Sequence record: PP359696.1
Length of the DNA stretch: 64,000 nt
Source of the DNA: Escherichia phage Ge15
Reading direction: 5' to 3' (one strand)
Of the stretch, positions 5,912 to 8,208 are shown piece after piece; position 1 is the first letter of the stretch; the number at the start of each line of letters is the position of its first letter. The translations under genes and the position numbers were made by a program. The notes beneath the pieces were generated by a model. It did not search any database. It was given only the letters and a program-made list of their open reading frames with translations, and was not told the DNA's origin.

Positions 5912-5984
5912 TGGGAATTAGCCAAGTTGGTAAGGCACTGGATTTTGATTCCAGGATGCAAAGGTTCGAGTCCTTTATTCCCAG
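5912..5984 (+). tRNA. tRNA-Gln (anticodon UUG)
   Basis: Cloverleaf by eye: acceptor TGGGAAT/ATTCCCA, anticodon loop TTTTGAT, T-arm GGTTCGAGTCC; abuts tRNA-Leu as a dimeric precursor. Confidence 0.85.
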
Positions 5985-5985
5985 C

Positions 5986-6073
5986 GCGAGAATGGTCAAA
6001 TTGGTAAAGGCACAGCACTTAAAATGCTGCGGAATTATTTCCTTGTGGGTTCGAGTCCCACTTCTCGCACCAA
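5986..6073 (+). tRNA. tRNA-Leu (anticodon UAA)
   Basis: Acceptor GCGAGAA/TTCTCGC, anticodon loop CTTAAAA, long variable arm, encoded CCA. Confidence 0.85.
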
Positions 6074-6077
6074 ATTT

Positions 6078-6151
<74 letters not shown>

Positions 6152-6155
6152 ATTT

Positions 6156-6806
6156 ATGACTCGTCGTGAGACGCTCAGTTCTTTATTAGGGACTGATATG
6201 CATTTTTATCTTTATAAAATAACAAATAAAATTAATAATAAAATTTATATTGGTGTGCATTCTACCGAAAATTTAGATGATGGATATATGGGTTCTGGTA
6301 AATTATTAAAAAGAGCCCAAGATAAATATGGTATAGAAAATTTTTCTAAAGAAATATTAGAGTATTTTGATGATAAAGAATCTATGCTTGAAGCCGAGAA
6401 AAATATTGTCACAGAAGAGTTTTTAAATAGACCAGATGTGTATAATTTAAAACTTGGAGGTGAAGGTGGATGGGACCATATAAATAATTATCCTATGACA
6501 GATCAGCAACGCGAATTAATTTCATTGGGTGTTAAAAAGGCACATTCTAACGGAAAATTAAAAGGATGGTCTTCAAATGGATTAATGAAGAATGGCTTTA
6601 CTGGTAAAACTCATTCTCAAGAAGCTAAACGTAAAATAGCAAAAGCAAACGAAGCAAAAGTTTCTGCGGATGAAAGAAAAAGAAGAATAGAAATTTCTAA
6701 ATTATATGATTTTTCTAAGCGTGGTGAATTATCTAAATATGCTAAGCATATTGGCGTAAGTCATACTCAAGCAAAAAGAATTCTAAATCAAATTAACAAT
6801 ATATAA
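6156..6806 (+). CDS. segB: GIY-YIG homing endonuclease SegB-like
   Basis: GIY-YIG motifs (YLYKITNKINNKIYIGVH ... YMGSG) in an ORF embedded in the tRNA cluster as T4 segB; true start may be ATG 6198. Confidence 0.75.
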   Translation: MTRRETLSSLLGTDMHFYLYKITNKINNKIYIGVHSTENLDDGYMGSGKLLKRAQDKYGIENFSKEILEYFDDKESMLEAEKNIVTEEFLNRPDVYNLKLGGEGGWDHINNYPMTDQQRELISLGVKKAHSNGKLKGWSSNGLMKNGFTGKTHSQEAKRKIAKANEAKVSADERKRRIEISKLYDFSKRGELSKYAKHIGVSHTQAKRILNQINNI

Positions 6807-6812
6807 ATATTT

Positions 6813-6902
6813 GGAGGCGTGGCAGAGTGGTTTAATGCACCGGTCTTGAAAACCGGCAGTCGCTCCGGCGACTCATAGGTTCAAATCCTATCGCCTCCGC
6901 CA
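6813..6902 (+). tRNA. tRNA-Ser (anticodon UGA)
   Basis: Acceptor GGAGGCG/CGCCTCC, anticodon loop CTTGAAA, long variable arm, CCA encoded. Confidence 0.85.
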
Positions 6903-6908
6903 GTTTTT

Positions 6909-6984
6909 GCTGATTTAGCTCAGTAGGTAGAGCAACTCACTTGTAATGAGAAGGTCGGCGGTTCGATTCCGTCAATCAGCACCA
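6909..6984 (+). tRNA. tRNA-Thr (anticodon UGU)
   Basis: Acceptor GCTGATT/AATCAGC, anticodon loop CTTGTAA, T-arm GGTTCGATTCC. Confidence 0.8.
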
Positions 6985-6985
6985 A

Positions 6986-7060
6986 GGCCCTGTAGCTGGA
7001 AGGTTCAAGCAAGCGACTCATAATCGCCAGATGGTGGTTCAATTCCACCCAGGGCCACCA
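6986..7060 (+). tRNA. tRNA with CAU anticodon (Ile, lysidine-type as in T4, or Met)
   Basis: Acceptor GGCCCTG/CAGGGCC, anticodon loop CTCATAA, T-arm GGTGGTTCAATTCCACC. Confidence 0.75.
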
Positions 7061-7066
7061 AATTAA

Positions 7067-7153
7067 GGGGAGTTATCCCGTAGAGGTAGCGGTGTGGACT
7101 GTAAATTCATTGTCATTGCGACTCGGGTGGTTCGACTCCACCACTCCCCACCA
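7067..7153 (+). tRNA. tRNA-Tyr (anticodon GUA)
   Basis: Acceptor GGGGAGT/ACTCCCC, anticodon loop CTGTAAA, long variable arm resembling E. coli tRNA-Tyr, T-arm GGTGGTTCGACTCCACC, CCA. Confidence 0.7.
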
Positions 7154-7157
7154 ATTT

Positions 7158-7232
7158 GGATGTGTAGCTCAATGGCAGAGCGATCGCCTGTTAAGCGATT
7201 GGTTATAGGTTCGAATCCTATCACGTCCGCCA
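7158..7232 (+). tRNA. tRNA-Asn (anticodon GUU)
   Basis: Acceptor GGATGTG/CACGTCC, anticodon stem ATCGC/GCGAT with loop CTGTTAA, T-arm GGTTCGAATCC. Confidence 0.8.
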
Positions 7233-7346
7233 AATTTGTGACAACTGTCACATTAATATCTACTTGACGCGATTATAGGGGTTGAACTGATCACTCTTCT
7301 CTTAATTTCGTGTGAAGACATCTTGATTGTTGGAGTAGGTATTAAT

Positions 7347-7422
7347 GTGGCCGTAGTTCAGTTGGTAGAACTCGAGATTGTGATTCTCGTAGTCATGGGT
7401 TCGACTCCCATCGGTCACCCCA
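7347..7422 (+). tRNA. tRNA-His (anticodon GUG)
   Basis: Extra 5' G, anticodon stem CGAGA/TCTCG with loop TTGTGAT, T-arm GGTTCGACTCC, CCA. Confidence 0.8.
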
Positions 7423-7426
7423 ATTA

Positions 7427-7502
7427 CGGGGCATAGCTCAGAAGGAAGAGCAAGGACCTTCTAAGTCCTAGGTCGTAGGTTCGATCCCTACTGCCTCGAC
7501 CA
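7427..7502 (+). tRNA. tRNA-Arg (anticodon UCU)
   Basis: Acceptor CGGGGCA/TGCCTCG, anticodon stem AGGAC/GTCCT with loop CTTCTAA, CCA. Confidence 0.85.
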
Positions 7503-7520: not shown

Positions 7521-7871
7521 ATGAAAGGTAATGTTTATTTAGTAGTTCATGATTTAACATTTTACTTCAATGAATATGAAAAACATATCTCATTTCGTGA
7601 AATTAATTTACTTTATCAACATGCGGATTATATTTATATTCAAAACGAATTTGGTCATTGGCAATTTCTCAAAAATCGTTCATTTGGCTTAGATGGTTAC
7701 GAATACTTTGAACGTAAAGACCTTTTAGATAAAATTCCGTTATCTACGCAATATCAAAATCACAAATCTTTATATAAATGCCGTCCAATTCGAAATGTTG
7801 AATCCGCGTATGAAGCAATTGATTTATGGCGTGAACGCCGTAAACAGATTGATGCTTTAAAAGAATATTAA
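7521..7871 (+). CDS. hypothetical protein
   Basis: 116-aa ORF with GAGGA RBS immediately after tRNA-Arg. Confidence 0.55.
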   Translation: MKGNVYLVVHDLTFYFNEYEKHISFREINLLYQHADYIYIQNEFGHWQFLKNRSFGLDGYEYFERKDLLDKIPLSTQYQNHKSLYKCRPIRNVESAYEAIDLWRERRKQIDALKEY

Positions 7872-7874
7872 GAA

Positions 7875-8180
7875 ACCGGGTCGCTACCGGTAAGTCGTCG
7901 GACTGATGTTCCCTGAGTAAGGAATTGCGTTAATAATCTTTGCGTTTATTGATGCCCTCTTACATCACAGCAGAAACGGCGCACCGAATTATCGATTCGA
8001 GGAAATATCTTTGCCGTAAGCCGAGTAGCGTTTTTGACGGAACGTTCGGATATGGTCGAGATATGGCCTTTTAAAAATATTGAGTAGCGTCAACTGCTTA
8101 ATAACCGGGTTCGAATCCCGGCGTTTCGTACAAACACTTGCCTTAGCAGGTGGAACCCCGACAAGGTTGCCGCAAGGCTT
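7875..8180 (+). ncRNA. structured non-coding region, candidate stable small RNA(s) (possibly T4 rnaC/rnaD analogues)
   Basis: About 300 nt with no plausible ORF, GC-rich local hairpins and a tRNA-like T-arm CCGGGTTCGAATCCCGG; ends at a terminator. Confidence 0.25.
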
Positions 8181-8181
8181 A

Positions 8182-8208
8182 GCCCCAGCCGAAAGGTTGG
8201 GGCTTTTT
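8182..8208 (+). terminator. rho-independent terminator
   Basis: Hairpin GCCCCAGCC-GAAA-GGTTGGGGC followed by TTTTT. Confidence 0.7.

Follow-up and report, generated by a model that had tools for sequence, protein, structure and literature searches.

Tyr, Asn and His tRNA genes in a mosaic tRNA array of Escherichia phage Ge15: probable codon supply and defense buffering, with a structured leader RNA upstream of tRNA-His

The window, that is, the whole stretch of 64,000 nucleotides of Escherichia phage Ge15 DNA (PP359696.1) that was analyzed, belongs to a Tequatrovirus, its first 25 kb being 96%–97% identical to AndreasVesalius, PinkRuby, CrRp10, and KIT03. Ten tRNA genes, all on the + strand, were called by ARAGORN between positions 5912 and 7502 (Table 1), a list identical to that of the first-pass annotation (Gln, Leu, Gly, Ser, Thr, CAU, Tyr, Asn, His, and Arg). 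In the T4 record, the tRNAs are Gln, Leu, Gly, Pro, Ser, Thr, Ile, and Arg, which is the set of eight, Pro included, given for T4 in the first-pass annotation. Taken together, the ARAGORN calls and the T4 record bear out the earlier statement that, relative to T4, Pro is absent and Tyr, Asn, and His are added. No tRNA-Asp, tRNA-Lys, or tRNA-Pro is found among the ARAGORN calls in the window. Nine of the ten tRNAs pass the gathering score of the Rfam family RF00005 (E values of 2.4e-14 for Asn and 6.9e-12 for His), the exception being Tyr. Gln, Leu, and Gly (5912-6151) form a first sub-cluster that is common to T4, and the spacers between the tRNAs are 0–7 nt by the ARAGORN coordinates, except where an endonuclease open reading frame (ORF) and a leader RNA intervene; the gap between Asn and His is 114 nt long. 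BLAST gave no match in the window for the Ile and Arg genes of T4, which are ∼61% identical to the CAU and Arg tRNAs of the window. The CAU tRNA is probably tRNA-Ile2, which would read AUA once modified with lysidine, as suggested by the T4 precedent and the enrichment of AUA codons.

Table 1. Features of the tRNA-rich region and the evidence for each
Feature	Position	Strand	Evidence and remarks
tRNA-Gln(UUG)	5912-5985	+	ARAGORN, Rfam; 89.0% identity to T4 gene
tRNA-Leu(UAA)	5986-6072	+	ARAGORN, Rfam; 98.9% identity to T4 gene
tRNA-Gly(UCC)	6078-6151	+	ARAGORN, Rfam; 100% identity to T4 gene
GIY-YIG homing endonuclease ORF	6198-6806	+	Pfam GIY-YIG and NUMOD3; annotated as homing endonuclease in teqdroes
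tRNA-Ser(UGA)	6813-6902	+	ARAGORN; 100% identity to T4
tRNA-Thr(UGU)	6909-6984	+	ARAGORN; 96.1% identity to T4
CAU-anticodon tRNA	6986-7060	+	ARAGORN; only 61% identity to T4 tRNA-Ile
tRNA-Tyr(GUA)	7067-7153	+	ARAGORN; type II, long variable arm, A73, encoded CCA
tRNA-Asn(GUU)	7158-7232	+	ARAGORN, Rfam 74.1 bits; G73, encoded CCA
Structured leader RNA, three-way junction	7252-7346	+	RNAalifold, MFE z-score, covariation
tRNA-His(GUG)	7347-7422	+	ARAGORN, Rfam 65.1 bits; C73, encoded CCA, T at -1 (7346)
tRNA-Arg(UCU)	7427-7502	+	ARAGORN; 61% identity to T4 tRNA-Arg, i.e., the other allele
116-aa ORF of unknown function, 3' of tRNA-Arg	7521-7871	+	ORF call
rnaD homologue	7871-7985	+	99.1% identity to T4 rnaD
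rnaC homologue	7992-8130	+	98.6% identity to T4 rnaC
Terminator-like hairpin followed by a T run	8181-8204	+	Consensus scan, pattern match only

The region has the layout of a Tequatrovirus tRNA-rich region, with all features on the same strand and in synteny with T4 and teqdroes from the trna.2/trna.3/ipI genes to rnaD/rnaC. The endonuclease ORF fills the place that tRNA-Pro occupies in T4, between Gly and Ser. Its N-terminal ∼100–120 residues align with SegB of T4 and T6 (83%–84% identity over the aligned span), the first ∼100 being close to identical, but the C-terminal half, which contains NUMOD3, is unrelated, and the similarity does not extend over the full length. The SegB proteins of T4 and T6 are 95% identical from end to end, and the position of the endonuclease gene differs in all three phages. 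The published SegB cleavage motif, RAWTSGAAC, occurs in the T-loops of Gly, Thr, and Asn and in rnaC. A Pfam search with the 116-aa ORF gave no match, and a 351-nt ORF is present at the equivalent position in T2 and teqdroes. The hairpin beyond rnaC probably marks the end of the tRNA/small-RNA transcription unit, judging from the pattern match.

The genes for tRNA-Tyr, tRNA-Asn, and tRNA-His are all intact, point in the same direction, and are probably co-transcribed. In E. coli, the identity elements of tRNA-Tyr are A73 and the long variable arm, and those of tRNA-Asn are G73 and the GUU anticodon. Read from the sequence, both sets are complete in the phage genes; in tRNA-His, C73 is present, with T at -1 in place of G-1. 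The 7-nt anticodon loops of the three tRNAs are those of host tyrT, asnT, and hisR, and substitutions that would make them insensitive to loop-reading nucleases such as colicin E5, as in the anticodon-loop mutation model of van den Berg et al. (2023), are absent. Overall identity to the host genes is 65% for Tyr (tyrT), 62% for Asn (asnT), and 79% for His (hisR). The Tyr gene does not reach the Rfam threshold; within the clan, it matches tRNA-Sec best (30.9 bits). In the cloverleaf drawn by ARAGORN, the D stem is weak and contains a C-C mismatch, and two pairs of the anticodon stem are G-U. The gene is nevertheless counted as real because it is identical at 87 of 87 positions to the tRNA-Tyr of T6, which is expressed and functional. 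Its variable arm, TGTCATTGCGACTCG, is also that of T5 tRNA-Tyr.

The spacer between Asn and His folds into a structured RNA of ∼95 nt that ends at position -1 of tRNA-His. The minimum free energy of the 114 nt is -32.7 kcal/mol, compared with -20.6 ± 2.8 kcal/mol for shuffled sequences (z = -4.4). RNAalifold, run on eight distinct sequences from four genera, gave a consensus in which a closing stem of 14 bp (7252-7265 with 7333-7346) carries two arms, a long hairpin (7267-7313) and a 4-bp hairpin (7317-7331). In this consensus, 99.1% of cells are paired and six pairs are compensatory, against 35%–48% of cells and at most one compensatory pair in slid controls, and the G-U pairs are compatible only with an RNA of the + strand. 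The inner hairpin exists as two sequence types, which are mixed across genera. Homologues of the leader are present in 355 phage records; in Jiaodavirus, Karamvirus, and Gelderlandvirus, they are 75%–89% identical and lie directly 5' of tRNA-His, and in Salmonella phage STP4-a the leader has been kept although His is lost. A covariance model found one copy per T4-like array and no match in T4, T2, T6, or T5. A search of 7233-7346 against Rfam gave no family match at an E value of 1 or below. A consensus scan for promoters and terminators gave no + strand site in the spacer, and the region as a whole was no richer in such sites than shuffled sequence. A strict pattern of the leader found five loci in IMG/VR, all of known types, and a loose pattern found 120 stretches in metagenomes, mostly by chance; the model matched 3 of the 80 that were checked, with no new variant among them. 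That the spacer might be the remnant of a tRNA, for instance of Asp, was rejected: in Jiaodavirus and Karamvirus, Gln and His flank the leader, with Asp elsewhere, and no tRNA is called within it by ARAGORN.

The T at position -1 of tRNA-His is found in all leader-bearing phages that were compared, whereas E. coli hisR encodes G-1. The tRNA-His of T5 presumably also carries U at -1, as suggested by its GenBank annotation, in which the tRNA is 78 nt long and has T as its first base. Directly next to this tRNA is a 106-nt "RNA III, stable RNA with unknown functions", which folds with a closing stem of 12–16 bp. A Klebsiella phage of the Vequintavirinae likewise combines T at -1 of tRNA-His with a hairpin leader. 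G-1 together with C73 is the main identity element for HisRS (PMC9976931), and the U at -1 of the phage gene departs from what HisRS of E. coli recognizes. No discussion of a phage tRNA-His with U at -1 was found in the literature searched.

To relate the array to codon demand, 90 uncurated ORFs of the window (16,919 codons) were compared with 42 annotated genes of E. coli K-12 (14,748 codons), which is a small sample. The seven core tRNAs read the units AGA, AUA, UCA, ACA, GGA, UUA, and CAA, which rank 1–6 and 13 of 45 by phage/host ratio, and AUA is the second most phage-enriched codon. For all ten tRNAs, the Mann-Whitney test gave p = 1e-4. Among the 16 NNY units, UAY (Tyr) ranks first with a ratio of 1.76 and AAY (Asn) second to third with 1.49, whereas CAY (His) ranks 14th with 0.73; as single codons, UAU is 8th and AAU 4th of 61. 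Among the amino acids over-used relative to the host, Lys comes first (1.95x), followed by Tyr (1.76x) and Asn (1.49x), and yet the phage has no tRNA-Lys. The codon ranks therefore predict Tyr and Asn, but not His, as the next additions to the core set, so that codon usage accounts for two of the three tRNAs that set this array apart from T4.

For tRNA-Tyr, there is also direct evidence from another phage. The Septu system EcB88 cleaves tRNA-Tyr in the variable loop (Chihara et al., 2026, Nat Commun, PMC13096335). T6 was rescued from this system by over-expression of its tRNA-Tyr or by SegB-driven amplification, escape mutants having amplified a tRNA-Tyr-segB unit of 718 bp, and T6 deleted for the tRNA region was more sensitive to Septu. 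Escape was impossible for T4, which is without tRNA-Tyr, and T2 was resistant. The tRNA-Tyr of T6 is itself cut by Septu, and protection of the wild-type phage is only partial (PMC13096335). Given this partial protection, that afforded by one copy of tRNA-Tyr may be limited. In a second system, retron-Eco7 is countered by the tRNA-Tyr of T5 (PMC11555353). The tRNA-Tyr of the window matches the validated example of a supply or decoy anti-defense tRNA both in species and, being identical to the T6 gene, in sequence. The idea that the phage supplies a tRNA depleted by a host defense is thus right for tRNA-Tyr, going by its identity to the gene on which others have shown it; for the same reason, the idea is already published. 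The first-pass annotation had suggested that the added tRNAs may serve against a host defense rather than just adjust codon usage. The defense part of that proposal holds for Tyr by virtue of the T6 data, but the contrast with codon usage fails, with UAY and AAY among the top NNY units.

The case of tRNA-Asn is less direct. AriB, the nuclease of PARIS, cuts E. coli tRNA-Asn(GUU) at U36AAUC/C41 (the slash marks the cut), a target that is secondary but of biological relevance, and the tRNA-Asn of T5 contributes to the neutralization of PARIS (PMC12409363). At this site, positions 39 and 41 are both G in the phage gene, against U39 and C41 in the host, and the phage sequence reads U36AAGC/G41; T5 tRNA-Asn also has G39. 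These differences are suggestive but weak because the gene is just 62% identical to asnT overall; they are not significant and could be due to chance. The OLD nuclease of P2 also cuts tRNA-Asn, the sole one of these tRNAs to be named there (PMC12445682), and Asn is not mentioned in the Nature paper on PARIS (PMC11464382). Because the phage is without tRNA-Lys, the main target of PARIS, tRNA-Asn alone cannot defeat this system. A defense role of tRNA-Asn is nonetheless plausible. As for tRNA-His, it is a probable but minor product of AriB (PMC12409363); beyond this, no defense with tRNA-His as main substrate was found in the literature searched, and the Schlafen paper does not mention the Tyr, Asn, or His tRNAs.

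Taken together, these data probably describe an array in which the added tRNAs serve both as supply for codon demand and as a buffer against tRNA-depleting defenses, carried on a mosaic module of T2 type. The phage tRNAs would be matured and charged by host enzymes and would top up the tRNA pool during infection. A surplus of Tyr and Asn would meet the raised demand for UAU and AAU of an AT-rich phage, and the same surplus could buffer the pool against depleting nucleases, namely Septu and PtuAB of retron-Eco7 in the case of Tyr and, as a secondary target, AriB of PARIS and OLD in the case of Asn. Such an action would be by dosage and not by insensitive anticodon loops. Codon supply and buffering against depletion are not exclusive because they are the same physical act; for Tyr and Asn both explain the genes, and they are not alternatives.

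It is unlikely that the array reflects compensation for codon and amino acid usage alone, without any part in the evasion of defenses. The over-use of Tyr and Asn, the high ranks of UAU and AAU, and the close match between the core tRNAs and the most phage-enriched units are what this explanation would predict. It does not, however, account for the effect of the identical T6 tRNA-Tyr against Septu, and two features of the codon data themselves speak against it: His is under-used, and the most over-used amino acid, Lys, has no tRNA.

The distribution of the genes among phages bears on how the array arose. The 1.8-kb tRNA region is 98%–99% identical to AV122, teqdroes, KIT03, RB18, and AR1, and the same ten tRNAs are annotated there. 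The array type is common, annotated in hundreds of genomes, and already known. At a coverage of at least 80%, the block of Tyr, Asn, gap, and His was found in 186 phage records. Individually, the tRNA-Tyr allele occurs in 609 phage records, the tRNA-Asn allele in 351 (316 of which are at least 99% identical), and the tRNA-His allele in 344, including 112 from Klebsiella phages. The Arg allele of the window is present in 424 records and that of T4 in 61, many of them T4 itself. By these allele counts, T4 is an unusual, minority member of its genus for tRNA content, and expectations based on T4 mislead. Among the T-even and RB phages, the Tyr/Asn/His set is absent from T4, T2 has Tyr and Asn, T6 has Tyr, and RB18 has the same array as the window.

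From these comparisons, the array is built on a majority module of T2 type, CAU-Tyr-Asn-Arg-ORF, into which a unit of leader and His, common to T4-like phages of Klebsiella, Enterobacter, and Proteus, has been inserted between Asn and Arg. T4 itself has a minority cassette with its own Ile allele, segB, and its own Arg allele, and the mosaic was probably reshuffled by homing endonucleases of the SegB type. It could be asked whether the tRNAs are no more than passengers of such endonuclease-driven cassette exchange, hitch-hiking neutrally and with no selected benefit. The mosaic nature of the array, in which Pro, Ser, and Thr are variable and Ile and Arg have two alleles each, would fit this, as would the SegB-type endonuclease, whose position is different in each of T4, T6, and the window, and the fact that T4 thrives without Tyr, Asn, and His. 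Neutral passengers would not, however, be expected to persist as intact and conserved genes, with Asn nearly invariant in most of its records and His 98.7% identical across genera, or to retain their identity elements and encoded CCA ends, and a benefit is demonstrated by the T6 data. We consider neutral hitch-hiking quite improbable.

The three tRNAs had also been linked in the first-pass annotation to the queuosine family and to anticodon nucleases of the colicin E5 type. Colicin E5 cleaves Q34-bearing tRNA-Tyr, tRNA-His, tRNA-Asn, and tRNA-Asp. It is a bacteriocin and is not known to be an antiphage system; no antiphage system resembling it was found in the literature searched. The likeness to its substrate set is that U33-G34-U35 is kept in all three tRNAs, three of the four GUN tRNAs lying together at 7067-7422, and all four are present, within sets of 12–15 tRNAs of various types, in the arrays of Jiaodavirus and Karamvirus; a role of phage tRNAs against colicin E5 was raised for coliphages by Van den Berg et al. 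(2023; PMC10264068). The bases recognized by E5 and by Tgt (U33-G34-U35, positions 33–36) are, however, unchanged because the loops equal those of the host, with U33-G34-U35-N36 intact and no sign of resistance substitutions. The four GUN tRNAs (Tyr, His, Asn, and Asp) are not inherited together, with Asp absent from the array and the distributions of the others differing: T2 and RB3 have Tyr and Asn without His, and T6 has Tyr alone. Nor were the three genes acquired as a set, because His is 98.7% identical to the Jiaodavirus gene, compared with 78% for Tyr and 64% for Asn, and the leader-His unit travels with Klebsiella phages, which implies at least two separate acquisitions. That the three tRNAs came together as a queuosine set against a nuclease of the E5 type cutting Q34/G34-U35 tRNAs is therefore extremely improbable, the more so as related arrays also hold 8–11 non-Q tRNAs.

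The reading of joint codon supply and defense buffering thus covers Tyr and Asn. Since 2023, repeated proposals and tests, this exact tRNA-Tyr included, have addressed the idea that phage tRNAs replace those destroyed by host defenses. The joint reading does not cover tRNA-His: the gene is accounted for by neither codon demand nor defense buffering, and any role for it has to be inferred. One tentative suggestion, which we regard as possible but doubtful, is that leader and tRNA-His form an undescribed device, in which the leader might direct RNase P to leave a nucleotide at -1, might act as a stable regulatory or decoy RNA, or might be part of an answer to a defense targeting tRNA-His. The leader-tRNA-His module is the one element of the array outside both explanations, and it is cheap to test.

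A comparison with known arrays places the window between several T4-like types. Phages of Jiaodavirus, Karamvirus, and Gelderlandvirus, which are T4-like and infect Klebsiella, Enterobacter, Proteus, and Salmonella, share the unit of leader and His, and the order Tyr ... Asn ... leader-His is collinear with that of the window. They differ in having 11–15 tRNAs, including Lys, Asp, Met, Gln, Trp, Pro, and Phe, and their more divergent Asn, at 85 nt, carries an extended variable arm. T5 belongs to another virus family and has more than 20 tRNAs, Lys among them, but resembles the window in the variable arm of tRNA-Tyr, in G39 of tRNA-Asn, in the T at -1 of tRNA-His, and in the stable RNA of ∼106 nt that abuts it. 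The likeness between this RNA III and the leader is one of position and architecture only; homology was not supported, the covariance model giving no match at T5 rnaIII, which leaves an analogy. The tRNA region of T5 acts against defenses, Tyr countering retron-Eco7 (PMC11555353) and Lys, Thr, and Asn countering PARIS, with Lys as an example of a nuclease-insensitive phage tRNA.

Within the genus, T4 shares with the window the genomic position of the array, five tRNAs (Gln, Leu, Gly, Ser, and Thr, 89%–100% identical), and rnaD and rnaC (∼99%), but it has Pro, its own alleles of Ile and Arg with segB between them, and neither Tyr, Asn, and His nor the leader. In T2, the order is Gln, Leu, Gly, Pro, Ser, ORF, CAU, Tyr, Asn, Arg, ORF. 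The CAU-Tyr-Asn-Arg-ORF module is the same as in the window, and tRNA-Asn is 100% identical, but in T2 Pro is retained, a further ORF comes after Ser, no Thr is annotated, and, with leader and His absent, the array continues directly from Asn to Arg. The order in T6 is Gln, Leu, Gly, Thr, CAU, Tyr, segB, Arg. T6 is without Ser, Asn, and His, and its segB follows right after Tyr, whereas in the window the endonuclease is placed between Gly and Ser, and its C-terminal half is unrelated. Like the window, T6 opens with Gln-Leu-Gly, carries within the array an endonuclease of the GIY-YIG type whose catalytic domain is that of SegB, and encodes the identical tRNA-Tyr.

The homing endonuclease encoded within the tRNA array is chimeric: a GIY-YIG catalytic domain near-identical to that of T4/T6 SegB is joined to a C-terminal half that carries NUMOD3 and is unrelated to SegB. 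The gene is inserted at the site of T4 tRNA-Pro, and in the annotation of relatives it is variously named segB, segD or SegB-like. The window contains eleven matches to RAWTSGAAC, the cleavage motif published for SegB, and four of them lie in the T-loops of the Gly, Thr and Asn tRNAs and of rnaC. Elsewhere in the array, the CAU and Arg(UCU) tRNAs reflect allele replacement, not divergence from the T4 genes; they are only ∼61% identical to T4 tRNA-Ile and tRNA-Arg, and the T4-type Arg allele is the rarer (61 records vs 424).

A 116-aa ORF, for which no Pfam match was found, follows tRNA-Arg; an ORF of equal length occupies the same place in T2 and teqdroes and is missing from T4. When codon usage in 90 window ORFs was compared with that in 42 E. 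coli K-12 genes, Lys was the most over-used amino acid (1.95 times the host; AAA, 70.6 per thousand). Despite this, the phage has no tRNA-Lys, unlike related T4-like phages of Klebsiella and Enterobacter.

The D stem and anticodon stem of tRNA-Tyr are both weak, and its score falls below the Rfam tRNA threshold, features in keeping with a comment in the literature that calls T6 tRNA-Tyr relatively unstable. Counterparts of the allele occur at 94% identity in rV5-like phages and at 81%–86% in T5-like and Felix-O1-like phages. This likeness points to a phage-specific tRNA-Tyr lineage that, judged by sequence, would be common to several phage families. In Jiaodavirus and Karamvirus, tRNA-Asn(GUU) is 85 nt in length and its variable arm is long, an unusual feature in a tRNA of this kind.

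The phage tRNA-His genes have T at position −1 and retain C73, where E. coli hisR encodes G−1. The −1 T is common to T4-like phages, T5 and one Vequintavirinae phage, and prompts two questions: by what route the 5′ end is formed, and how efficiently HisRS charges the tRNA. In the window, this nucleotide is also the 3′ end of a leader RNA.

What looks like a spacer separating tRNA-Asn from tRNA-His encodes this leader, a conserved RNA that folds as a three-way junction. Its folding z score is −4.4, and six compensatory pairs were found among eight sequences from four genera; no matching Rfam family was found. The leader RNA is kept in Salmonella phage STP4-a, from which tRNA-His is absent. Just 5′ of it lies a perfect inverted repeat, GTGACA-AC-TGTCAC. 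STP4-a has it as GTGACA-N6-TGTCAC, and the remaining genera lack it; conservation here is limited to TGTCACAT.

Positions of the features in the window and in related phage loci
Feature	Sequence	Position	Remark
Homing endonuclease	window	6198-6806
CAU tRNA	window	6986-7060
tRNA-Tyr	window	7067-7153
Inverted repeat	window	7238-7251
Leader RNA	window	7233-7346	+ strand; interval from tRNA-Asn to tRNA-His, with the core at 7252-7346
Arg(UCU) tRNA	window	7427-7502
116-aa ORF	window	7521-7871	3′ of tRNA-Arg
SegB motif matches in T-loops	window	6128, 6961, 7209, 8109 (- strand)	all inside the 2.2-kb tRNA region
tRNA-His T at −1	window	7346-7347
tRNA-His T at −1	L004 (Jiaodavirus locus)	1598
tRNA-His T at −1	L018 (T5 region)	6284
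tRNA-His T at −1	L021 (Vequintavirinae Klebsiella phage locus)	403
85-nt tRNA-Asn	L004	794-878
85-nt tRNA-Asn	L005 (Karamvirus locus)	804-888
T5 rnaIII	L018	6285-6390 (NC_005859 30284-30389)	annotated "RNA III", stable RNA, functions unknown

A covariance model built on the leader RNA of T4-like phages detected no homology between it and T5 RNA III. T5 RNA III lies directly upstream of T5 tRNA-His, as the leader RNA does before its own tRNA-His, and folds with a closing stem of 12–16 bp that ends at the tRNA. By position and architecture, T5 RNA III is an analogue of the leader RNA.
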